Origin: a virus
IMG/VR virus record: IMGVR_UViG_3300045988_135688
Strand: one strand, 5' to 3'
Length of the DNA: 64,000 bases
Part shown: piece by piece, positions 3,181-62,353 of the stretch
Position numbering within the stretch: the first letter of the stretch is position 1
Layout: each line of letters begins with the position of its first letter
Position numbers and translations under genes: made by a program
Notes under the pieces: model-generated
Database searches by the model: none
What the model was told of the DNA's origin: nothing
What the model saw: the letters and a program-made list of their open reading frames with translations, nothing else

Positions 3181-3678
3181 TTAAAGCGTTGGTTGGTCAA
3201 TACTGAAATTTAACGAAAATGTATAGGCGGACACAAGTCGGTCTGGGTTCTGTAAGTCCTGAACGTCCTGATAACTCAACTTTGCACCTGTTTCAAAACC
3301 CGTGCATCTTATCACCTGCTTTGCCGATTCTCCCCATATATCATTCCATATAGAGAAAGAGGATGAACCGTATGGCGTACCGGGAGTGGCAGGTATCACA
3401 TTGGTTATATATGAATAGAACGAACGGATATTAGTCTTTACCGTTTCCACATCTCCCAAAGCGGCAAATGTTATGCTTCCTTCCGTTGGCTGGTAAACAG
3501 GCGTGACAGGTTCGTACACCTTCTGACCGTTCTTGTCATACCATTTTTCGGCATAGGCTTCCTTTCTTGTCGGCAAATCCCATAATCCCTTGCTTTCAAG
3601 TATATACAGCCTGTATGTGGCATACAAATCCTTTGCCGTATCGCTTCCTTTCTTTATAAAATATTTAGATATAGCCAT
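3181..3678 (-). CDS. Hypothetical tail protein in distal-tail (Dit) position
   Basis: 165-aa ORF, first gene after the tape measure, ends 6 nt before the tail-fibre start. Function inferred from gene order only. Confidence 0.45.
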   Translation of the reverse strand: MAISKYFIKKGSDTAKDLYATYRLYILESKGLWDLPTRKEAYAEKWYDKNGQKVYEPVTPVYQPTEGSITFAALGDVETVKTNIRSFYSYITNVIPATPGTPYGSSSFSIWNDIWGESAKQVIRCTGFETGAKLSYQDVQDLQNPDRLVSAYTFSLNFSIDQPTL

Positions 3679-3753
3679 TCGTGTACATTGTTTATTAGTG
3701 CAAAAATAACAAAAATAGTCTTATAAACCATCTAACTTTAAATAATAATTTTA

Positions 3754-3761
3754 TATATTTG
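3754..3761 (+). promoter_or_regulatory. Bacteroidota-type -7 promoter box TAtaTTTG upstream of tRNA
   Basis: TATATTTG about 10 nt upstream of the tRNA 5' end; matches the TAnnTTTG consensus known for Bacteroides sigma-ABfr promoters. Confidence 0.5.
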
Positions 3762-3771
3762 CATCACAATC

Positions 3772-3843
3772 GGTGCTTTGGATGAGTGGTTTAGTCAACG
3801 GTCTGCAAAACCGACAACAGCGGTTCGATTCCGCTAAGCACCT
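3772..3843 (+). tRNA. tRNA-Cys (anticodon GCA)
   Basis: 72-nt cloverleaf: acceptor GGTGCTT/AAGCACC, T arm AGCGG-TTCGATT-CCGCT, anticodon loop CTGCAAA, 13:22 mismatch and U73 discriminator as expected for tRNA-Cys, 4-nt variable loop, no encoded CCA. Confidence 0.85.
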
Positions 3844-3880
3844 CAAGTGATTGGATTTTTTTTGTTCATGATTAATTTCA

Positions 3881-10608: not shown

Positions 10609-11145
10609 ATGACAAACCAAGAAATGTTTTTAAAGAGATTAACTCTCTTGAATATTCCTCTATCGCTAGAAGGAAAGGAACTTCCATCAGATTTGAAAGC
10701 AAAGATTATGCTTATGCGTGTATCTTACGACAAAGCTGCAAAAGCATTCGATGATGATATGCAACAGGTTCTTAAAGAAATAAAGAAGGAAGGATATGAC
10801 GAGCGCGCACAGAAAATCAATCGCATGAAAGAGATTGACGGTAAGGAAGATGCAACAAAAGAGGAAAAGAAAGAAGCGGATGAAATCAGAAAGACAGAAG
10901 AAGATTTCAACAAGGAAACAGAAGAACTGAACAAGGCATACTCCGAAGCATACCAAGAGAAAATGAAAGAGGAATGTGATATGAAGCCTAGATACTTCGC
11001 CTTTGAAGGATTCACTAAAATAATTGAACTCATTGGTACTGACGGTGCAATCAAGGTGAAATGGAACTCTCCCGAAGCATTGGAAATACCAAAGGAGGAA
11101 TTCATCTCGCTTATCGCAACAAACTTGGTAGATAACCTCGAATAA
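10609..11145 (+). CDS. Hypothetical Lys/Glu-rich coiled-coil protein (178 aa)
   Basis: ORF track; 14 nt after the previous ORF. Antisense ORFs in the same span look like low-complexity shadows. Confidence 0.6.
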   Translation: MTNQEMFLKRLTLLNIPLSLEGKELPSDLKAKIMLMRVSYDKAAKAFDDDMQQVLKEIKKEGYDERAQKINRMKEIDGKEDATKEEKKEADEIRKTEEDFNKETEELNKAYSEAYQEKMKEECDMKPRYFAFEGFTKIIELIGTDGAIKVKWNSPEALEIPKEEFISLIATNLVDNLE

Positions 11146-11173
11146 TATATAAGATATTAAAGTTTACTGTATA

Positions 11174-11392
11174 TTTTATATATGCTTCATTTGGAGTCAG
11201 GTTATTAGCCTAAGCACTTTGAGTGCTACGTTGGATGAGAATGATATATAGTTACCTACGGATGTTTACCCAAGTCTGTAGCTCTAAGTTAAGTGGTTAA
11301 AAGGAGTAGCGTATTCGGTGAAACGGTGCTGCTTATGAAAACCTCATCCAACATTGGCGATGGGTATTTAACGGGAGTAATCCCGACTTATG
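11174..11392 (+). ncRNA. Orphan IscB-type omega-RNA (HEARO-like) paralogue: ~20-nt candidate guide plus ~200-nt scaffold, no adjacent iscB
   Basis: ORF-free gap. Colinear blocks shared with the iscB leader (32131-32340 minus strand): AGTCAG start, GAGAAT..ATATAGTTACC, GAAAACCTC, CGATGnGnATTTAACGG, AATCC(C)GACTTAT. The 10-bp helix 11230-11239/11343-11352 is kept by compensatory substitutions relative to the iscB copy. GTAA tetraloop hairpin at 11372-11385. Confidence 0.6.
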
Positions 11393-11545: not shown

Positions 11546-12022
11546 ATGAATAAGCCGTTTTCTATATTGCTATTTTTTTTGTTACTGTCGTGTTCTTGTT
11601 CACGCAAGCTACTTCCATCTTCGACAAATACAACCATAGTAGACCACAACACGACAGTAACGGAAAGAGTAGTATGGCAATCAAAAATAATAACTCTTCC
11701 AACAGAACACATACAACATACAACATTTGAAGATAGTTCACACTTGGAAACATCATTAGCCGTATCAGACGCTAAAATAATGTCGGATGGCAGGCTTTTT
11801 CATAGTTTGAAAAACAAGAAAGACTTTCTACAAGACAGCATCCCATCCTTGGAAAAAGAAACGGTAGTGACGAAAGATTCGATAATAACCGTGGAGAAAA
11901 TTGTAGAAGTAAAGGTAGAAAAGGAATTGTCTAAATGGCAAAAAATACTAATCAATCTTGGATACATAGGTATCGGTTTCATATTGTTTTCAGGTTACAA
12001 AATAGCCCGAAAGTTCGTGTAA
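11546..12022 (+). CDS. Lipoprotein with C-terminal transmembrane anchor (unimolecular-spanin-like topology)
   Basis: N-terminus MNKPFSILLFFLLLSCSC (signal peptide plus lipobox Cys). C-terminal hydrophobic helix ILINLGYIGIGFILFSGY followed by KIARKFV. Confidence 0.6.
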   Translation: MNKPFSILLFFLLLSCSCSRKLLPSSTNTTIVDHNTTVTERVVWQSKIITLPTEHIQHTTFEDSSHLETSLAVSDAKIMSDGRLFHSLKNKKDFLQDSIPSLEKETVVTKDSIITVEKIVEVKVEKELSKWQKILINLGYIGIGFILFSGYKIARKFV

Positions 12023-12056
12023 CTTTCGGGCTTATTTTATTGGGGATTGATAAAAT

Positions 12057-13136
12057 TTATGGAGCGTAATCTTCAACCATATTATAGGTGGTATTTACCC
12101 TTGTGGCTCTTGCTGCAATATAATAATCATAAGAAAAATCTCTACTAACATTAAAGGAATACATAGATGATCTATATGTTCCTTTTGCCGGAACCTGTGC
12201 AGTAAGTCCTGTAAGTAATGAACCAGCATTTTCTCCAGCTTCTGGAACTGTTCTTGTCCTCATTAACACAAGAACTATACCACGTATAGTAACAGATGAC
12301 CCACTATTATTTGTTATAATGAAGTTGTATGTAATTTGGTTATTAGAAGAGTTCCATGTACCAAATGCTTCTATTACGTATAGAGATCCAGCTGCATGAA
12401 TAGTCATTGTTTTTGGTGTTACTGGAATAGGTATGTATATTCCTTGTTTTAATTCATCATCTACTCCTATTTTATTAGATGACAAGAAAAAAGCTACTTT
12501 CCATTTACCTACATAACTACCTATATTTAATAACCTTATAGATACTGAATCAGTAAACATACTTTCAGATGTTACTAAAATGTATCTAGTATTTTGTAAA
12601 AGTCCTACCCCTGCATACATTTCAGAAAATGGAGTTCCTTGATAGCTTAAATAGGATAGCAAAATGTTATCATCAGTATTTGTTGTCTGTTCAAGTTGTA
12701 TTTCTAGATTATTAGATGTGTCCAAATATACATCTGATGGAACGTCATCTCCAAAAGGAACTATAGCATTATGATTATATCCGTTGAAATCCAATATCCG
12801 ATAAGGTGCTGAATCTCCACCAGTAGGAGCATTATATCCCCAGTCTACACCATCAAAAAGGTCTTTTAGAAATCCGCTATTAAGCGTTCCTGGTGACATG
12901 TATCCCACTACACTTAGACCACATAAACCATCATTAGCTTTCCAATAATCAGAACGATAATCTAAGTATGGTTGCCTCACAGGTTTATATTTACTCCATT
13001 TATTTATTTTCCCATGCGTATTTGCACACGCATATCCCAAATCATAACCATCACTAGTAGGACCGATACCTAGAGTAGGATATACATCACTATCCAATCC
13101 GACAGGTGCGGTGATTTTACCGTTAGAGTGACCCAT
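12057..13136 (-). CDS. Cassette A large protein (359 aa); N-terminus paralogous to 29614-30624, C-terminus unrelated; putative receptor-binding / tail accessory protein
   Basis: MGHSNGKITAPVGLDSDVYPTLGIGPTSDGYDLGYAC aligns with MGHSNGKITAPINLGGDVYPTLGIGATSNGYDLGYAC of cassette B. The first 32 nt are identical in both copies. Function inferred from location in the tail operon. Confidence 0.7.
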   Translation of the reverse strand: MGHSNGKITAPVGLDSDVYPTLGIGPTSDGYDLGYACANTHGKINKWSKYKPVRQPYLDYRSDYWKANDGLCGLSVVGYMSPGTLNSGFLKDLFDGVDWGYNAPTGGDSAPYRILDFNGYNHNAIVPFGDDVPSDVYLDTSNNLEIQLEQTTNTDDNILLSYLSYQGTPFSEMYAGVGLLQNTRYILVTSESMFTDSVSIRLLNIGSYVGKWKVAFFLSSNKIGVDDELKQGIYIPIPVTPKTMTIHAAGSLYVIEAFGTWNSSNNQITYNFIITNNSGSSVTIRGIVLVLMRTRTVPEAGENAGSLLTGLTAQVPAKGTYRSSMYSFNVSRDFSYDYYIAARATRVNTTYNMVEDYAP

Positions 13137-13280
13137 AGACTACACCTCCACAAATTTATTGCAGACGATATTGCCGCCCATTGTCAAACTACCCGTCACA
13201 CGTACATCACCATCAATAATGACAGCTTGTGACAAATCAAACTCTTCTGGTACCTCACTACCATCTAAGGCTATTATCTC

Positions 13281-13356
13281 ATAAAGCCCCTCTGTCGGGC
13301 TAAAGCCCCTCTGTCGGGCTAAAGCCCCTCTGTCGGGCTAAAGCCCCTCTGTGCTC
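13281..13356. repeat. 19-nt tandem repeat x4 (minus strand unit GACAGAGGGGCTTTAGCCC)
   Basis: aaagcccctctgt recurs at 13283, 13302, 13321 and 13340 (period 19). Each junction forms GGGC-TTTA-GCCC. Confidence 0.9.
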
Positions 13357-13389
13357 CCTCGCTTCGCTTCGGTCGCACACCAAATTTCC
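13349..13389. other. 41-nt GC-rich box, identical to 30825-30865
   Basis: ctgtgctccctcgcttcgcttcggtcgcacaccaaatttcc is identical in both cassettes while the flanks have diverged. Contains TGTGC/GCACA closing arms and a GCGAAGC motif. Confidence 0.85.
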
Positions 13390-13402
13390 AGTAATAAACA
13401 AA

Positions 13403-13807
13403 CTAATCTTCATAATTATTATTTTTTAAATATTTTGTAACACTATTCATTACGCATTCTACACACCATCCTAAAAGATATGCAAAATGCTCGTCTTGTC
13501 CATTTTTATAACCCATAGAAATATCGCAATAGTCAAACACATCACAAACATAATGAGTTGATTCGTGAGCTACAGTATTTATTTTTAGACCATCATTTGA
13601 TAGCCAAATAAGTACACCTAAATTATTTGTACTTTTCTCTCTTACATTGATAGTCAAGCCATAACAGCGTTCAATTTCATCTTTAGATATATCTATCGGG
13701 TCATGATTGTGGTTGGTAAATTTTCTATTGATTTTTTTCCATTGGTCATTCCCCACTGCAACATACAGTTTAAGGGGATATATTTTAGGATCATATTTTG
13801 TTATCAT
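13403..13807 (-). CDS. Small putative zinc metallopeptidase (HExxH)
   Basis: 134-aa ORF with VAHESTHYV (HExxH). Its stop overlaps the start of small ORF A. Confidence 0.6.
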   Translation of the reverse strand: MITKYDPKIYPLKLYVAVGNDQWKKINRKFTNHNHDPIDISKDEIERCYGLTINVREKSTNNLGVLIWLSNDGLKINTVAHESTHYVCDVFDYCDISMGYKNGQDEHFAYLLGWCVECVMNSVTKYLKNNNYED

Positions 13808-20002: not shown

Positions 20003-20770
20003 CTATTTGTTAATTTTACTGTAATATCGGCTGACAATGTTGTTTTCCTTGTTAGCCTTATCTTCTTCTCTCTTTCTATCTATGAATGACTTTACATCGC
20101 TAGAACCACCCTTGTCAGGGATGAAAGGATTAAAGCCATCCTTTGTGTATTTAGTACACGTTTCATTGTACTTTCCCTGTATTTTCAGAAGAATGCTTGT
20201 ATCTTCCTCTTCGGGCGAAATCTGAATGTTCTCAAAAATGATGTTGCGCAACAACTCGTTAGGCATACCCGCTTCCGGGCGTTTAATCAAATCAGACAGC
20301 TTCTTGCGCTTTTCAGTTACAATCTGCTTCTGCTTTTCCTCCTGCTCTTTAGCTTCAAACTCTTTCTTGAACTTTTCAAACTCTTCAAGTTTAGCCTTAA
20401 CATCATCGGGCAACTCAAACGGTTTCGGTTGCGGTGCTGGTGTCGGTGTAGGTTGTGGTTGCGGTGCTGGTGTCGGTTGTGGTGCAGGATGTGATTTTTC
20501 CCATTCCTTTTTCAAGTTGGATATTTCCTGTTCCTTGATTGTATCCCACTCTTTGCGCTTATCAGACGCAAACGCTCTTACCTGACCTGCCACTGTGTTC
20601 TTTAAATGATTTACAACACTTTCATTCCAGAACTTTTCCGCATTTTCCTGCGGTGCGAACGCTGAGAACTCATTGATTGTCTGTTCGATTGTACGATCTG
20701 TAATAACGGAGCTACTTTCTCCCAACGCATTCTTGATACCTTCAAAAATGACTTTTACATTTTCATCCAT
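20003..20770 (-). CDS. Putative scaffolding protein
   Basis: 255 aa, highly charged helical protein with a PAPQPTPAPQPQPTPTPAPQPKP linker. First gene of the morphogenesis operon. Confidence 0.65.
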   Translation of the reverse strand: MDENVKVIFEGIKNALGESSSVITDRTIEQTINEFSAFAPQENAEKFWNESVVNHLKNTVAGQVRAFASDKRKEWDTIKEQEISNLKKEWEKSHPAPQPTPAPQPQPTPTPAPQPKPFELPDDVKAKLEEFEKFKKEFEAKEQEEKQKQIVTEKRKKLSDLIKRPEAGMPNELLRNIIFENIQISPEEEDTSILLKIQGKYNETCTKYTKDGFNPFIPDKGGSSDVKSFIDRKREEDKANKENNIVSRYYSKINK

Positions 20771-22629: not shown

Positions 22630-23890
22630 GCAATTAAATACTAATTTACACATATTTAACTAAATTAGTTATGTTATAATTTAATTTATAGTTATATTTG
22701 TGACATGAAACGAGCATATAAATATAGACTTAATCCTACTCCTGAGCAGATTGTTTTCTTCAACAAATCTTTCGGGTGTTGTAGGTTTGTGTATAACTAT
22801 ATGCTTGGTAAACGTATAGAAGCGTATCAGCGTGACAAGACGAAGATAGGATGGGTTGAACTGGCTAAGATGCTTACAGAACTTAAAAAGGAAGATGGGA
22901 AGGAATGGCTTTCGGAAGTATCAAACGAGTGTCTGCAACAATCCATAAGAAATATGGACAGCGCGTTCGTGAAGTTCTTCCGTGAAAAGGCAGGGTTCCC
23001 AAATTTCAAGGCGAAGCATTACAGCCGACAGTCATACAAGGCTATAAATTCGGTGTCTGTTGACCTTGACAACAACAAGGTAAGACTTCCAAAGATCGGA
23101 TGGGTTAAATTCTTTCCGAACAGAAAGTTTGACGGTAAGGTATGTTCTGTCACGGTAAGCAAGACACCAACAGGTAAATATTTCATTTCTGTCCTTGTTG
23201 ACGATGGAAAGGAAATACCTGTAAAGCCTGCTGTAAGATATGATACGTCTATCGGTATAGATGTCGGTATAAAGGATTTTGCAGTTTGTTCAAACGGTGA
23301 TGTGTATGCCAATCCCAAATATCTTGAGAAATCGGAAGCAAGGCTAAAGGTGTTGCAAAGAAGATTCTCAAAGACAAAGAAAGGCTCCAACCGAAGAGAA
23401 CGGGCAAGAAAAATATTGGCAAGACAGTATGAGAAGGTTTCCAACCAACGCAACAATTTCCTGCATCAAGTCACATCAAAGATTGTCCGTGAAAACCAAA
23501 CGATAATCATTGAGGATTTGAATGTAAAGGGTATGTTGAAAAACCACCGTCTTGCAAAATCCATATCATCCGTTTCATGGAGCGAGTTTTTCCGACAGCT
23601 TGAATACAAGTGTGAATGGTATGGACGCAACCTTATACGTATCGGACGTTTTGAAGCAAGTTCCAAGACGTGTATATGCGGATACGTTAATAGTGAATTG
23701 AAACTCAGTGACCGTGAATGGGTTTGCCCGAAATGCGGAAGGCACAATGATCGTGACATTCTCGCTTCGGTGAACATCAAACGGTTCGGACTAATATCAC
23801 CCTTGGTAGAAGGGGTTGAGGACGTGGAGTGGTCGGCAGTAGTCGGGGCAGTGAAGCGTCAATATGTATATGTATAATTACCTGTATATA
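22621..23890 (+). mobile_element. IS200/IS605-like non-autonomous element carrying tnpB only (no tnpA)
   Basis: The left 180 nt (22621-22800) recur at 60918-61086 with ~96% identity in the coding part. Inserted exactly between the terL stop and the portal start. Boundaries are approximate. Confidence 0.6.
22705..23877 (+). CDS. tnpB: TnpB RNA-guided endonuclease (IS605 OrfB family)
   Basis: N-terminus KRAYKYRLNPTPEQ. RuvC motifs IGIDVGIKD, IIIEDLNVKGM, NDRDILASVNI. Zinc finger CICG...CPKCG. Confidence 0.9.
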   Translation: MKRAYKYRLNPTPEQIVFFNKSFGCCRFVYNYMLGKRIEAYQRDKTKIGWVELAKMLTELKKEDGKEWLSEVSNECLQQSIRNMDSAFVKFFREKAGFPNFKAKHYSRQSYKAINSVSVDLDNNKVRLPKIGWVKFFPNRKFDGKVCSVTVSKTPTGKYFISVLVDDGKEIPVKPAVRYDTSIGIDVGIKDFAVCSNGDVYANPKYLEKSEARLKVLQRRFSKTKKGSNRRERARKILARQYEKVSNQRNNFLHQVTSKIVRENQTIIIEDLNVKGMLKNHRLAKSISSVSWSEFFRQLEYKCEWYGRNLIRIGRFEASSKTCICGYVNSELKLSDREWVCPKCGRHNDRDILASVNIKRFGLISPLVEGVEDVEWSAVVGAVKRQYVYV

Positions 23891-28837: not shown

Positions 28838-29624
28838 GATTGCAGACTATTACTTCCAAGCAAAAAGACTTGCAAACGGTATAAAATCGTCAACCAGAGA
28901 GCGTGCGGAGAAGTTCTCTAAAGACCTTCTAGCCATATTCCTTTTAGCAGGGGCTAAATCGTTCAAGTCAATATCAAAACTCCCGGATAGCCAAAAAGAA
29001 AAAGTGCTAGAACTGACCAAAAAGTTCCGTGAGGATATATATAACGACATATACCAATATGTACTGGAAAGCAATAAACTGTCACTAGAACTAAACGATG
29101 ATCTTGGATGGGAGTATATTTCAATGACGGACAACGGCATTAAGGAATACATGGAAAGGACATACGGTGGAGAAACGACAAAGCAGAGAATAAACACAAA
29201 TACAAACAGATTCCGCGCTGTTGTTGAAGTATATCTTGCCAATACATTACTGTCAATAAAAACGAACAATATAGAAAAAATAACGGATGAGGTTCAAAAG
29301 AAGATATGGAACAACATATCATCACCATATAACGTATCATTTATTCCGCCAAGCAAACAGAAACACTATGGGAGAGGATATGCTACAAACGGTATAAGCC
29401 AGTTGTATGTTATAGAACAACAGATGATTCTAGGAATTTTCAATGAAGCAAATTACAACTCATGGAAAAACATTCCAAATTTCAAGGGATGGAGGACAGC
29501 AGTAACGTCTAAAAATCCATGCCAGTTCTGCATTGACGAGCAATACAGAATACACACAGACAGACCTAAGCTGCCGTTCCATGCCCATTGCTTGTGTATA
29601 TTATATCCGGTGTTTAATACATAA
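28812..29624 (+). CDS. Head morphogenesis / minor capsid protein (SPP1 gp7 / Mu F-like)
   Basis: The C-terminal motif NPCQFCIDEQYRIHTDRPKLPFHAHCLCILYP resembles the conserved Cys/His end of the Mu F family. Confidence 0.65.
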   Translation: MINKEEISKIADYYFQAKRLANGIKSSTRERAEKFSKDLLAIFLLAGAKSFKSISKLPDSQKEKVLELTKKFREDIYNDIYQYVLESNKLSLELNDDLGWEYISMTDNGIKEYMERTYGGETTKQRINTNTNRFRAVVEVYLANTLLSIKTNNIEKITDEVQKKIWNNISSPYNVSFIPPSKQKHYGRGYATNGISQLYVIEQQMILGIFNEANYNSWKNIPNFKGWRTAVTSKNPCQFCIDEQYRIHTDRPKLPFHAHCLCILYPVFNT

Positions 29625-30624
29625 TAACTTGATAATCAACATACCATTGAGTAACATTACCATAAGATGGGGGATTACCAGCATCAACCACGTCATTACG
29701 GGTAAATGATTTAGGAATATTTGTGCACGAAGGCATCAATATATTACCTGACCATTGACCTGTATAAGATCCATCTTTCGCTCTCCATCTATATCTAGCG
29801 TATGGTCTGCCGGATGAAGCAACGTAATCACTAGAAGTGTTATTTGTAATGTTTAATCTGCATTTAGAAGAAGTAGACCCATTTGTCAACTGTCCGTAAA
29901 CAGAGAATCCAGAAGCGTTGGCTGTTGTATCTCCAAGTGTAATAGAAAGACTTTGAGTAACCACTATCGGCTTACGAATAAATCCGTCAGATGTAGTAGG
30001 GATTAAGCATAATACATTTCCACTGTAATCACAAAAATAACCCTTAATATAAATATATGTATCCCCCATAGATATGAGATTATTGCGATTAAGGGTAATT
30101 GAAATTTTTCCTGTACTATCAATACTACTTACAACGAAAACTCCAGAATCCACCAACTTCTTTAATTGATTATATACTTCCACCTTTATCTTCATATTAG
30201 ACCAAGTAAATCCCCCAAGTATTTTACCCCAATTATACCTAGAATCAGCCCAATATGGTGAAATTGTAAGTACAAACGTTGTCTTTGTAGCATCTACAGG
30301 ATTAGTTAGGATATCTTTATCTATTGTAAGAGGTTTAGCCCCATGATCGTATCCATCAAAATCAGTAAGCCTATACCATGTTTTAGGTCTATCATATACT
30401 AATTTCTTATTTACAGAATCATAAATTATACCAGGTAAACTAGCGTTGTCAAATGAAGGGCTAGACGCTTCTTTGGGTTTTATATAACTCCACATATTAA
30501 TTTTTTCGCTAAGACAAGCATACCCTAAATCATAGCCATTACTAGTAGCACCAATACCAAGGGTAGGATATACATCACCACCCAAATTAATGGGTGCGGT
30601 GATTTTACCGTTAGAGTGACCCAT
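29614..30624 (-). CDS. Cassette B large protein (336 aa from MGHSNG); paralogue of 12057-13136 at N-terminus only
   Basis: See cassette A. The ORF track starts at GTG 30630; the conserved ATG is at 30624. Confidence 0.7.
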   Translation of the reverse strand: MGHSNGKITAPINLGGDVYPTLGIGATSNGYDLGYACLSEKINMWSYIKPKEASSPSFDNASLPGIIYDSVNKKLVYDRPKTWYRLTDFDGYDHGAKPLTIDKDILTNPVDATKTTFVLTISPYWADSRYNWGKILGGFTWSNMKIKVEVYNQLKKLVDSGVFVVSSIDSTGKISITLNRNNLISMGDTYIYIKGYFCDYSGNVLCLIPTTSDGFIRKPIVVTQSLSITLGDTTANASGFSVYGQLTNGSTSSKCRLNITNNTSSDYVASSGRPYARYRWRAKDGSYTGQWSGNILMPSCTNIPKSFTRNDVVDAGNPPSYGNVTQWYVDYQVIMY

Positions 30625-30889
30625 AATCACCCCCTTCCTCTATAACGGTAAAAGAACCTTTACAAACAACAATGCCATTATAACTGATACTACGACAATG
30701 AATATCGCCATCAATTATAACAGCATCAGAAATGTCATAATCACTAGGAAGTTCCCCACCACATAGTGTTATAACTTCGACTGCCCCTGTGCAGCTAGAC
30801 TGCCCCTGTGCAGCTAGACTGCCCCTGTGCTCCCTCGCTTCGCTTCGGTCGCACACCAAATTTCCATTTACAAACAAATTAATTTTCAT
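30611..30889 (-). CDS. Cassette B small beta-helix-like protein (92 aa), intact, reads through a 19-nt tandem array
   Basis: ORF track. MKINLFVNGNLVCDRSEAREHRG... has the same N-terminus and 41-nt box as cassette A. Its start overlaps the iscB stop (ATGA). Confidence 0.65.
   Translation of the reverse strand: MKINLFVNGNLVCDRSEAREHRGSLAAQGQSSCTGAVEVITLCGGELPSDYDISDAVIIDGDIHCRSISYNGIVVCKGSFTVIEEGGDYGSL
30776..30832. repeat. 19-nt tandem repeat x3 (minus strand unit GCACAGGGGCAGTCTAGCT)
   Basis: gactgcccctgtgc at 30779, 30798 and 30817 (period 19). Forms a GCAG-TCTAG-CTGC hairpin. Confidence 0.9.
30825..30865. other. 41-nt GC-rich box, identical to 13349-13389
   Basis: Direct comparison of the two loci. 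Confidence 0.85.
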
Positions 30890-32130
30890 AAATTTACTTT
30901 CGTTCGCTTTTCAATTAATATACTTTTTCTTGTATCTATCAACCGCAAATGCTTACAATTGATAGAACCTTTGTTTACTTTTGTACCGTCAAGTTTCCGA
31001 ATATCAAAGTAACCACTATTTCTCCTACTAAAAATGTAATACAACTCTTTTTGGTATTCAACCAAGTCAAACAATCTAAATCCTTTCACTAAGAATGGTG
31101 CTTGATTGAGTTTCTTTCTGCCACCTTTCAAGAAATTAGCTTTGTGTATTTGTCTGTTTTGGCATCTTACCTTCTTCTGATAGAAATAATAACCTAAAGG
31201 TTTAGCCACAGGATTATCACTGATACACCTTGCATCAACATAATGCTCTTTAGGAAGATTGTTAGTGATACGGGTATTCTTCGTGATATAGCCAAAAGTC
31301 ATACTTACATTAGGATAGATATTCTTTAGCCTATCATAGAAACTCCATCGCATAATCCCCATAAAGGCAGCATTTCTAAATGACTTTCCACGCTTTACAT
31401 TTAATTCAAACTCACCTCTATGATATGCCTTATGGCAAGTTTCACAAAGGGTAATCAAGTTGTTTGGGCTATCACCTCCAGTCTTTCTGCTCTCTATGTG
31501 ATGCACATTCAAGACTTTATCTTTACTCTTACCCTTACAATGTTGGCAAATATGATTATCTCTAAATAACACATATTCACGCACATTGAAGAAATCAAGC
31601 TGTTCTCCTTGTTGGTATTCACTGCCAGATATACTTGGATTATTAATCTTTTGTATATCAAAAGCAGCCGTTTCAACTACGATATTAGTTATCGGTAGGA
31701 ACTTATGTATCTTCTCAACAATAGTCAAATGAGTTTGGATTTTGTTTTCAATAGATGGTGCTATCCAACCTTTACGCTTGGAAGATACCCTATTATTGAA
31801 ACGAGCCTTGCGATAACGAAGCCTACTCCTACGGGTTCTTCTTAATTCCCTACGAGTAGATAGCTTATCCACAATATCGTTTCTCAATTCCACATCTGCT
31901 GCATACAATTCCTTCTCACTTGTTGTTGCTGAAATGCCGATATGCTTGCTACCAGCATCTACACCCAAACTTACGGGCTGTGTATAATCTGTTGTGTCAT
32001 AATCCAATTGAATTGTGAACGGAATACGGCACACAACATGGGCTAGACTGTTTTTTAACAGCCTTCTCACCTTACCAAACCTTTCGGTTGGCATAAGTGC
32101 TTGTCCTTGTTTGTTAATTACGTAAACCAT
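30886..32130 (-). CDS. iscB: IscB RNA-guided nuclease (PLMP, split RuvC, bridge helix, HNH)
   Basis: VYVINKQGQALMPTERFGKVRRLL (PLMP). LGVDAGSKHIGISA (RuvC-I). Arg-rich RRELRRTRRSRLRYRKARFNNR. IVVETAAFD (RuvC-II). HNH CQHCKG...HHIESRKTGGDSPNNLITLCETCH. EHYVDARC (RuvC-III). Confidence 0.9.
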   Translation of the reverse strand: MVYVINKQGQALMPTERFGKVRRLLKNSLAHVVCRIPFTIQLDYDTTDYTQPVSLGVDAGSKHIGISATTSEKELYAADVELRNDIVDKLSTRRELRRTRRSRLRYRKARFNNRVSSKRKGWIAPSIENKIQTHLTIVEKIHKFLPITNIVVETAAFDIQKINNPSISGSEYQQGEQLDFFNVREYVLFRDNHICQHCKGKSKDKVLNVHHIESRKTGGDSPNNLITLCETCHKAYHRGEFELNVKRGKSFRNAAFMGIMRWSFYDRLKNIYPNVSMTFGYITKNTRITNNLPKEHYVDARCISDNPVAKPLGYYFYQKKVRCQNRQIHKANFLKGGRKKLNQAPFLVKGFRLFDLVEYQKELYYIFSRRNSGYFDIRKLDGTKVNKGSINCKHLRLIDTRKSILIEKRTKVNL

Positions 32131-32340
32131 TTTTACTATAAGTCGGATTTATCCGTTAAATGCTCATCGACAATGTTATAGAGAGGTTTTCCGTCAGTAA
32201 CACTATTCCTACCCCACAGAATTGTTTAATCACTGACCTTAGAGCAAGGGGCTTGAGCAAACACCCACTTGGTAACTATATATTCTCTCCTAACGCTTAG
32301 TCTAATCAACTTGGGCTTTTAGCCTAATGGGTAACTGACT
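30886..32340 (-). mobile_element. IscB-type OMEGA element (iscB plus omega-RNA scaffold, no tnpA)
   Basis: Span of the iscB ORF plus the scaffold homologous to 11195-11392. Ends are not defined. Confidence 0.55.
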
Positions 32341-60917: not shown

Positions 60918-61137
60918 TATTTATAGTCAATTAAACACCATTTAACAAAATTAGTTATGTTGTAATTTGATTTATAGTTATATTTGCAATATGAAACGAG
61001 CATATAAATATAGACTTAATCCTATGCCTAAGCAGATTGTTTTCTTCAACAAATCTTTCGGGTGTTGTAGGTTTGTATATAACTATGGCATTAGAACGAA
61101 TTTACACTATTATATAGAAGTACATAATACTGGCTAA
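60918..61137 (+). pseudogene. Left end plus first 32 codons of a tnpB-1-type element, truncated (48-codon remnant ORF)
   Basis: 60918-61086 aligns with 22621-22800 (shared tatttatag, -7 box, ATG; 4 mismatches in 96 coding nt). Homology stops at tataactat. The remnant reads MKRAYKYRLNPMPKQIVFFNKSFGCCRFVYNY, then unrelated sequence and a stop. Confidence 0.8.
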
Positions 61138-61138
61138 T

Positions 61139-62353
61139 ATGCAATTAGTTTATAAATTTGACATCAACCATTCCGACAGGCTTTGCGCTATCTGCCGTGT
61201 TACGAACAACCTGTACAACCAGGCGTTGTATATTGTCCGTAACGAGTTGAAGGATAACGACAGGTGGCTGTTCTATCCCGACTTGGACAGGATAATGAAA
61301 AATGTCACCAACCTTGAAGGTACGATAAATTACAGGCTTGTGAAATCACACGTAGCCCAACAGACATTGCGCGTGCTTGACAAGGCAATGAAGGGATATG
61401 TCAAGGCTGTAAAGGATTGGTCTAAGAATCCGGGGAAGTATAACGGTAAGCCCGAACTGCCATGCTATCACAAACGTGGAGGGATGAGCAATGCGATATA
61501 TACCAACCAGTCGTGCAAGATACATGACGGGTATATAATCCTTGACCGTGACTTGAAAATACCCGTTCCTCAATGGGAGAAATACAAGGACAGAATCGAA
61601 CGGTTCAAACAGGTTAGGATAATTCCAAAGCGTACATACATGACCGTGGAGGTTGTATATGATTGTGACTGTTCGGATAATGTCGGTACTGGTATGGCTT
61701 CGATAGACTTGGGTGTGAACAACCTTGCCACGCTGGTGTGCGGATGTAATGCGCTATTGTTTTCCGGCAAGGTTATCAAGTCATATAACAGATGGTTTAA
61801 CAAAAAATTATCCATGCTGCAATCCATAAAGGACAGGCAGGGTATAGAGAAACTGACAAACAGAATGAGAAAGATGTATGATAAACGTGAACGGTTTATG
61901 AATGATGCGATGCACAAGACAAGCAGGCGTATCGTTGATTATCTTGTATCACACCATATAGGCACTCTTGCTGTAGGCTACAACAAAGGATGGAAGCAAT
62001 CCGTCAATATGGGCGGAGTAAACAATCAGAAGTTTACATTCATCCCTTTTGCGAGGTTGAGAAGCTGCCTTAGATACAAGTGCGAGCTTGCAGGTATCAG
62101 CTATATCGAACATGAGGAAAGCTACACGAGCAAATGTGACGCTCTGTCTATGGAGGATATATGCAAGCATGAGAGTTATCTCGGCAAGCGTGTCAAGCGA
62201 GGACTGTTCAAGTCGGCAGTTGGAAAGGTTATCAATGCTGATGTCAACGGTGCGCTTAATATCGGTAGAAAAGTATTCGGTGATTCATTTATGATAACTG
62301 ATAGTGGGCGTTGGTATCGCCCCGAACGAATTAACGTTTTAAAATGTGTGTAA
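61139..62353 (+). CDS. tnpB: Divergent TnpB-family RNA-guided endonuclease (degenerate zinc finger)
   Basis: RuvC-like motifs ASIDLGVNNLATL, IEHEESYTSKCD, NADVNGALNIGRK. 404 aa, no tnpA. Confidence 0.8.
   Translation: MQLVYKFDINHSDRLCAICRVTNNLYNQALYIVRNELKDNDRWLFYPDLDRIMKNVTNLEGTINYRLVKSHVAQQTLRVLDKAMKGYVKAVKDWSKNPGKYNGKPELPCYHKRGGMSNAIYTNQSCKIHDGYIILDRDLKIPVPQWEKYKDRIERFKQVRIIPKRTYMTVEVVYDCDCSDNVGTGMASIDLGVNNLATLVCGCNALLFSGKVIKSYNRWFNKKLSMLQSIKDRQGIEKLTNRMRKMYDKRERFMNDAMHKTSRRIVDYLVSHHIGTLAVGYNKGWKQSVNMGGVNNQKFTFIPFARLRSCLRYKCELAGISYIEHEESYTSKCDALSMEDICKHESYLGKRVKRGLFKSAVGKVINADVNGALNIGRKVFGDSFMITDSGRWYRPERINVLKCV

Follow-up and report, generated by a model that had tools for sequence, protein, structure and literature searches.

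A 19-nt tandem array as a likely copy-number switch within a small gene of a gut phage

The window analysed here is a stretch of viral DNA of 64,000 nt (IMG/VR record IMGVR_UViG_3300045988_135688), and its source is a gut phage with an AT-rich genome of about 90 kb. Also encoded in the window, besides the genes discussed below, are a tape-measure-like protein of 2059 aa, the large terminase subunit and a major head protein, the last being distantly related to the head proteins of Parabacteroides phages. Two cassettes, A and B, are found on the minus strand (Table 1), each made up of a small gene with a GC-rich leader and an array of 19-nt units, and of a large gene that begins where the small gene ends. 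The small gene of cassette A is preceded by a 134-aa ORF (13403-13807, minus strand). The G+C content is about 62% in the array and leader, as against about 35% in the flanks.

Table 1. Features of cassettes A and B and their immediate surroundings in the window.
Feature	Position	Strand	Remarks
GC-rich hairpin AGCCCGAAAGTT...AACTTTCGGGCT	12003..12033	.	Read from the sequence; terminator-like, between convergent genes, at the end of cassette A
359-aa protein A	12057..13136	-	Start 3 nt past the small-ORF stop
C-terminal domain of small ORF A (YEIIALDGSEVPEEFDLSQAVIIDGDVRVTGSLTMGGNIVCNKFVEV-stop; YEIIALDG...VEV-stop)	13140..13283	-	Out of frame here
Shine-Dalgarno-like GGAGGTG ahead of the 359-aa ORF start	13143..13149	-	Read from the sequence
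Partial unit GAGGGGCTTTA of array A	13282-13292	-	Directly after the third full unit
19-nt tandem array A, full units GAGGGGCTTTAGCCCGACA	13331-13349, 13312-13330, 13293-13311	-	Exact unit matches
Small ORF A, 5' part, OFF state	13300..13413	-	37 aa, ATG 13413
GC-rich leader, 42 nt, TGGAAATTTGGTGTGCGACCGAAGCGAAGCGAGGGAGCACAG	13349-13390 and 30825-30866	-	Identical base for base in both cassettes
336-aa protein B	29614..30624	-	338 aa from GTG 30630; paralogue of the 359-aa protein
Small ORF B, open, ON state	30611..30889	-	92 aa; ATG overlaps the IscB stop codon (ATGA)
Cassette B leader block and array	30779..30866	-	Leader 30825-30866
Neighbouring mobile element outside the switch, IscB (RRXRR and HNH) and HEARO/omega RNA	30886..32339	-	IscB 30886-32130; RNA 32155-32339

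Tandem Repeats Finder places an array of period 19 at 13282-13352 (minus strand), with 3.7 copies and 100% matches. Every GAGGGGCTTTAGCCCGACA unit contains a 4-bp palindromic stem, GGGC/GCCC, with a TAG that spans the loop and the 3' arm, and the units stand head to tail with no spacers between them. A CRISPR-like or other spacer-containing array was rejected, the units being without unique spacers. Exact matching found no copy of GAGGGGCTTTAGCCCGACA elsewhere in the 64-kb window (chance expectation 0) and none of GGGGCAGTCTAGCTGCACA, the unit of cassette B; a role of the units as dispersed binding sites was rejected for lack of further copies of either.

Small ORF A begins with MKISLFITGNLVC, continues through leader- and array-encoded residues and is terminated by the TAG of the third unit, so that the ORF is indeed broken by the 19-nt array when read from the ATG at 13413, as the original prediction had it. 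The C-terminal part consists of 47 further codons in another frame, which join the N-terminus at two full units. When the copy number was varied in silico, two full units plus the partial one proved the sole open count, giving 84 aa, and the frame was closed at 0, 1, 3, 4, 5 and 6 full units. The same 84-aa form was also found as a natural allele, which bears out the expectation that one unit fewer restores the frame. It is in the third unit alone that the TAG comes into frame, which leaves a single open state. The further claim that no count other than three units, the partial one included, is open is correct for canonical 19-nt units and fails for natural alleles in which the frame is regained at 0, 1 or 3 full units, through an extra G in a G-run, through 20-nt units or through a leader shifted into another frame (P0086 is one such form).

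Cassette B had been described as an intact paralogue with three units of its own, and this agrees with what we find: its array comprises two full GGGGCAGTCTAGCTGCACA units (30807-30825 and 30788-30806) and a partial unit, GGGGCAGTC (30779-30787), of a 19-mer different from that of cassette A, and an in-silico copy-number series follows the same open-count rule. The GGGGCAGTCTAGCTGCACA stem is GCAG/CTGC. Among related loci, almost every unit variant of either cassette type still has a TAG, and the stem is kept by compensatory change, being GGGC/GCCC in type A, GCAG/CTGC in type B and GCAT/ATGC in two further loci (L002 and L075). The leader core, GTGCGACCGAAGCGAAGCGAGGGAGCACA (13350-13378, minus strand), also folds as a hairpin; relatives show only single-base variants of the leader, which is nearly invariant even where it is read in another frame. 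Single-strand folding gave z = -4.3 for the RNA of cassette A and -1.3 for that of cassette B, which is modest support, and the case for a hairpin therefore rests on the compensatory changes in unit variants and not on folding energies. A GCGAAGC mini-hairpin within the leader was given little weight, since the G-to-A variant GCAAAGC is common.

A megablast search with the locus against 50,697 phage records gave no match, and relatives among these were reached only through protein-level searches. A 24-nt piece of the leader, used to scan viral contigs, yielded 102 loci; a scan independent of the leader, which relied on the conserved 5' end of the large gene, brought 28 more, and a metagenome scan a further 61. 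Removal of duplicates left 128 complete, non-redundant related loci from viral and metagenome contigs. Across these the number of full units ranges from 0 to 7 in both cassette types, where some counts of six or more may be short-read mis-assemblies. Type A loci are distributed as 5 with no full unit, 12 with one, 15 with two, 8 with three, 3 with four and 2 with seven; for type B the numbers are 7, 16, 21, 20, 10, 3, 4 and 2 for zero to seven units.

Very close relatives differ in the same way. One pair with three and two units (L020 and L041), and another with seven and four (L031 and L078), show no difference in the 1000 nt downstream or in about 300 nt upstream of the array. Two loci with three units (L049 and L040) are 100% identical over the downstream 1000 nt, and 99.7% identical upstream, to one with a single unit (L079). 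Among pairs at least 99.5% identical downstream, array length differs in 11 and is the same in 5. Copy number evidently mutates much faster than point substitutions accumulate. Contigs carrying both cassettes show all four ON/OFF combinations. The related genomes and metagenome contigs are thus variable in copy number and do not share one broken state, contrary to the possibility, raised together with the original prediction, that related phages carry the same broken ORF.

The most frequent count is the open one in both types, yet the distributions are smooth, with no sharp peak at two units, and open alleles make up 36 of the 128 loci (28%), where one third would be expected were the frame irrelevant. 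With an open fraction so near chance, selection for the ON state has to be argued from the compensated alleles and from the C-terminal frames of broken ones. The numbers by themselves are also what would be seen if the array were a neutral minisatellite in the spacer before the 359-aa gene, the small ORF being a decaying pseudogene or no gene at all, and searches of Pfam and PHROGs with the small ORF gave no significant match.

We nevertheless regard a dead gene as quite unlikely. In all 70 OFF alleles tested the C-terminal frame is full-length and free of stops, and its variable sites are biased to third codon positions; the simple pseudogene that had been put forward as an alternative is contradicted by these intact frames. 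Alleles compensated back into frame are a further point against decay. Both the 92-aa and the 84-aa open forms are represented many times in the protein database, which also contains open forms of 72, 77-80, 86, 93 and 99 aa. A profile search of 1.8 billion representative proteins returned homologues of 70-92 aa with the same architecture, some of them distant, and small-gene homologues always lie upstream of the same type of large gene, which is likewise at odds with a non-gene.

Because the frame is regained by several routes, the amino-acid sequence of the linker is free, and what is kept is the joining of the N-terminal strand to the C-terminal domain. The N-terminus of the small protein, NLFVNGNLVC, shares its motif with the C-terminal domain (VIIDGDIHC, SISCNGIVVC), an arrangement reminiscent of a short beta-solenoid. 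An AlphaFold2 model of the small protein, built from 15 sequences, had a pLDDT of 42 and was unusable, and a beta-solenoid was not confirmed by it.

Other unstable repeats occupy the same linker position elsewhere in the family. In a locus with two tandem cassettes (L103), one linker holds an (AG) dinucleotide run of about 13 units and the other a poly-G(9), and the small-gene linker of another locus (L104) is a poly-G(10). A protein-level search with the 359-aa protein reached cultured phages of Parabacteroides distasonis, in which a poly-G-bearing small ORF lies between two paralogous large genes. The run is G10 in PD691P4, where the small gene is open and annotated as a CDS; it is G11 in PD691P3 and PD691P6, where the gene is broken and unannotated, and G12 in PD482P1, where it is also broken. 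In the crAss-like phage cr106_1, a first cassette has G10 and is broken, being annotated as a 32-aa fragment, and the other has G7 and is open, with 78 aa. Four homologues (P0122, P0126, P0128 and P0129) have no obvious repeat at the protein level; a repeat in the linker is thus frequent in the small-gene family and not universal. Repeats of different types at one position of a family, with lengths that vary among isolates, are characteristic of a contingency locus, and they would not be expected from neutral decay.

The cultured phages also bear on the quality of the assemblies. In some 14 contigs an end falls within the array or leader, and arrays of 6-7 units come near to short-read and k-mer lengths, as would be seen if the extra unit in cassette A and the variation among contigs had arisen from short-read mis-assembly. 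That explanation is scarcely credible for the data as a whole: most of the variation comes from arrays of 0-4 units, which at 10-88 nt fit easily within a read, identical states turn up in independent assemblies (three units are found in 8 type A loci, for example), poly-G length differs among phages that were cultured and sequenced individually, and open and compensated forms are present as many independent copies in the protein database.

A different reading of the broken alleles is that those with three or more units are leaky and not off, the ribosome hopping over one 19-nt unit or shifting frame. The precedent is the bypass in T4 gene 60, in which a take-off codon is followed by UAG, a hairpin forms at the site and a matching landing codon lies downstream. 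Here the codon before the TAG of the third unit (CTT in A, GTC in B) is found again 19 nt further on, in the frame of the C-terminal domain, the stop follows directly on this would-be take-off codon, a hairpin lies at the site with the TAG across its loop and 3' arm, and the TAG is conserved in both cassette types as described above. The likeness to gene 60 is automatic, however, since a codon match one period apart arises in any tandem repeat, and alleles with no unit or one unit, which are common, are neither explained by bypass nor open to rescue by a hop. Relatives differ at the A_AAT_TTG heptamer that lies upstream in the window (as in GGTAATTTGG and GGAAACTTGG), the poly-G and (AG)n homologues have no such structure, and we know of no nascent-peptide signal at this locus. 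We therefore hold recoding to be highly improbable. Two specific forms of it were rejected: a -1 frameshift at A_AAT_TTG, on account of the unconserved heptamer and its unsuitable distance from the hairpin, and a programmed ribosomal frameshift of the kind known from tail chaperones (G/GT), where in addition the frame relation varies with copy number.

The cassettes are mosaic, with array type, small-gene C-terminus and large-gene type occurring in several combinations. The genes for the 336-aa and 359-aa paralogues are 85% identical over the first ~110 nt, and the C-terminal parts of the two proteins are different; the conserved 5' block and these first ~110 nt of the large gene appear to act as mosaic joints. 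Such exchange of parts raises the question of active rearrangement, in which leader and hairpin units would serve as a nuclease or recombinase site, copy number being changed or cassettes swapped by IscB with its omega RNA or by another phage enzyme. The identity of the 42-nt leader in both cassettes, its near invariance in relatives even in another frame, and the fact that an IscB element abuts the start codon of the small ORF at two genomic positions in different genomes would all suit such a process; IscB/HEARO abuts the other cassette position in six other contigs. Most loci with variable arrays, however, have no adjoining IscB, the sequence 5' of the omega RNA is unlike the leader or the units, ordinary slippage explains the poly-G and (AG)n homologues, which are without a leader, and no dedicated enzyme was identified. 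In our view active rearrangement is very unlikely. The narrower idea that leader or units are an IscB guide or target, or a transposon end, was rejected on comparable grounds: the 5' flanks of both HEARO RNAs in the comparison match neither, and most variable loci lack IscB.

The partner of the small gene is a large protein with a conserved N-terminal alpha/beta domain (about residues 1-130 in the 359-aa protein) and a variable C-terminal part. Neither the 359-aa nor the 338-aa protein gave a significant match to Pfam or PHROGs, and a sequence search of the PDB was empty. A model built from 45 homologues (pLDDT 91.5) has two beta-sandwich domains in the variable part, for which Foldseek returned generic beta-sandwich (Ig/FN3-like) matches in the PDB, with a TM of about 0.2, and uncharacterised phage proteins. 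Among the neighbouring genes Pfam did not identify tail tube or chaperone genes, and the gene order of the window thus gives no role for the 359-aa protein. In the PD691 phages and in cr106_1, the cassettes follow a tail-type protein of about 1800-2000 aa and several stand in tandem, a setting that fits a tail-tip or fibre role of the large protein; its conserved N-terminus, variable C-terminus and multiple paralogues suggest an interaction with the host.

In every case the stop of the small ORF lies a few bases at most from the large-gene start, or the two ORFs overlap, which would permit translational coupling. A GGAGG(T)-type motif also lies 5-11 nt upstream of the large-gene start in the window, the PD691 phages, L104 and cr106_1, and it is conserved at the nucleotide level though the encoded residues differ. 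Given this ribosome-binding-like motif, the large gene may initiate on its own, and with such an independent start the direct output of the switch may be the small protein itself.

Taken together, we consider it likely that the 19-nt array is a hypermutable copy-number switch, that is, a contingency locus, inside a real small gene. In small ORFs A and B alike, a tandem repeat whose unit is not a multiple of three lies within the coding region, a change in copy number toggles an otherwise intact frame, and the number of repeats is polymorphic among very close relatives. The ON/OFF reading proposed at the outset gains support from this copy polymorphism, from the intact frames of broken alleles and from the other repeats at the same linker.

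On this likely reading, the small gene would encode a protein of about 75-90 aa, in which a short N-terminal strand (MKINLFVNGNLVC) is followed by a C-terminal domain of similar xGxhhC repeats, and the nucleotide length of the linker, not its sequence, would set the frame of that domain. Two full units plus the partial one would join the halves (ON), and other canonical counts would stop translation after 25-37 aa (OFF). Whole units would most likely be gained and lost by slipped-strand mispairing or by unequal recombination during replication of the phage DNA, and the palindromic stem of the unit, with the adjacent leader hairpin, may aid slippage or recombination in unit register. Switching would presumably be reversible within a lineage, and the contig breaks at the arrays are at most suggestive of frequent switching in a clonal population. 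Were each cassette to flip independently, a population could hold up to four expression states. The output is probably the presence or absence of the small protein and, through this, whether the neighbouring Ig-like-domain protein is used on the virion.

In bacteria, phase variation through repeats of several nucleotides is well known, as in the CTCTT pentamers of the Neisseria opa genes and the tetranucleotide repeats of Haemophilus. The array resembles these in that a unit that is not a multiple of three lies in a coding region near its 5' end and sets the frame by its copy number; it differs in the 19-nt length of the unit, in its 0-7 copies, in the hairpin and stop carried by each unit, in the single open state and in being viral. 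Among phages, Sorensen and co-workers are said to have described, in 2021, hypermutable poly-G tracts in the receptor-binding protein genes of Campylobacter phages. There, as would be the case here, repeat length in a phage reportedly shifts the frame in or near a virion or host-interaction module, and populations are mixed; poly-G itself is present in relatives of the locus, namely the Parabacteroides phages, cr106_1, L103 and L104. The window has no homopolymer G tract of the Campylobacter type, poly-G being confined to the homologous genes of the other phages, and has instead a structured 19-nt unit with a built-in stop. Unlike in the Campylobacter phages, the repeat is in a small upstream gene and not in the large protein, there are two cassettes per genome, and the hosts are Bacteroidales. 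To our knowledge, homopolymer tracts in Campylobacter phages and T-even phages are the only elements for which heritable stochastic switching by a phage has been demonstrated.

In T2, T4 and other coliphages, reversible frameshifts occur at simple sequence repeats and have been proposed as bet-hedging; the loci, which are spread across many genes, consist of short homopolymers of at least 6 nt (Gomez, Barrick and Waters, 10.1101/2025.10.21.683753). Compared with these, the position here is a dedicated linker, conserved in a family and filled by different repeats including a 19-mer minisatellite. The locus thus appears to work like known phage contingency loci, in an unusual build: distinct here, as far as the sequences tell, are the structured, stop-bearing 19-nt unit, the small upstream gene, the two independent cassettes and a family linker in which repeats have been gained repeatedly. 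A search of the literature found no description of the locus or of the poly-G of the PD691 phages.

The host side offers a setting for such a switch, as gut Bacteroidales evade phages through phase-varying capsules. Tentatively, and with less confidence than we have in the switch itself, we suggest that the repeat-interrupted small gene could represent a phase-variation module that is general among Bacteroidales phages and has arisen by convergence, shared by siphovirus-like, cultured Parabacteroides and crAss-like phages. It would make a stochastic choice whether each of several alternative Ig-like-domain tail proteins is deployed, and so set host range or capsule-type tropism, the poly-G of other phages being replaced in this lineage by a purpose-built "counter" of hairpin-forming, stop-bearing 19-nt units beside the invariant GC-rich leader, with one open state. 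If this is true, the phage module would be the counterpart of the phase-variable capsules of the hosts.

The conserved two-gene module is shared by crAss-like phages, cultured Parabacteroides phages and abundant gut phages that are uncultured, and the hairpin-containing, stop-bearing 19-nt unit represents an unusual design for a frame switch. Bet-hedging on the side of the gut phage is directly testable, since PD691P4, with an open small gene, and PD691P3, PD691P6 and PD482P1, with broken ones, are already in culture. For annotation, it is relevant that assemblies tend to break at the arrays and that broken small genes are missed or annotated as fragments.

The array type, the C-terminus of the small gene and the type of the large gene are found in several combinations among the related loci, making the cassette a mosaic. 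A B-type array precedes a 359-type large gene in L036, L098 and L017, an A-type array precedes a 338-type large gene in L066, L022 and L097, and the homologous small protein P0098 is itself a hybrid, with an A-type C-terminus behind B-type units. The leader, which is invariant, and the large gene's conserved 5' end both resemble recombination joints. Just upstream of the large gene, the nucleotides of a Shine-Dalgarno-like GGAGG(T) are conserved in very distant homologues, in which the overlapping residues of the small ORF are not alike; this conservation is notable because Bacteroidales and their phages seldom rely on such motifs.

Many of the related contigs, from both viral and metagenome sources, end or start within the array or the leader (L004, L007, L014, L030, L052, L059, L067, L070, L080, L093, L096, L101, L146, L166 and L176). 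Such breaks could reflect a within-sample mixture of copy numbers, or could simply come from a repeat that is common to both cassettes.

Features in the window and in related loci
Feature	Record	Position	Strand	Remark
HEARO/omega RNA, second match	window	11132-11372	+	85.8 bits, above gathering score
GGAGG(T) motif	window	13143-13149
GGAGG(T) motif	L105	~3862-3869
GGAGG(T) motif	L104	~461-468
GGAGG(T) motif	L138	~3833-3838
134-aa protein upstream of cassette A	window	13403-13807	-	phrog_1365, unknown function
GGT-rich imperfect repeat	window	20421-20495		period 18 (in-frame length); inside 255-aa ORF 20003-20770
TnpB-like transposase ORF	window	22705-23877	+	phrog_506
TnpB-like transposase ORF	window	61139-62353	+	phrog_506
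IscB gene (RRXRR + HNH) with HEARO/omega RNA	window	30886-32339	-
Poly-G small gene	OP172816.1 (L105)	3677-3870
Poly-G small gene	OP172818.1 (L107)	~2692-2888
Poly-G small gene	MT774378.1 (L138)	2265-2500

In public annotations the poly-G form of the small gene is missed or shortened where the tract shifts it out of frame: it is without annotation in the Parabacteroides phages PD691P3 and PD691P6, and in the crAss-like phage cr106_1 it appears as a 32-aa CDS (gp_13217).

In the window, the ATG of small ORF B is the exact end point of an IscB element, with an ATGA overlap. Six other contigs (L017, L069, L077, L082, L092 and L099) have the same element (protein ~94-95% identical) at the other cassette position, with the 134-aa gene on one side and the small ORF on the other. 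The right end of the element is thus found repeatedly against the start of a small ORF. On the left, the flanking sequences are not alike (...AACAATAAACAT| vs ...TTATAGCATAA|).

The phage genome holds several guests of the IS200/IS605 type. The second HEARO/omega RNA has no IscB ORF behind it; its neighbours are a 178-aa ORF, whose end it overlaps, and, after it, a gene for a 158-aa putative lipoprotein. It has the appearance of an orphan guide RNA or of what is left of an element. Each of the two TnpB-like ORFs is preceded and overlapped by one copy of a 147-nt repeat (22654-22800 and 60940-61086; 93% identical).

In cassette A, the stop codon of the 134-aa gene and the small ORF overlap by 11 nt. 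An HExxH motif (AHESTHY) in the 134-aa sequence suggests a small metallopeptidase-like protein. The 255-aa ORF adjoins the head genes, and its GGT-rich repeat is probably a Gly-rich coding repeat.
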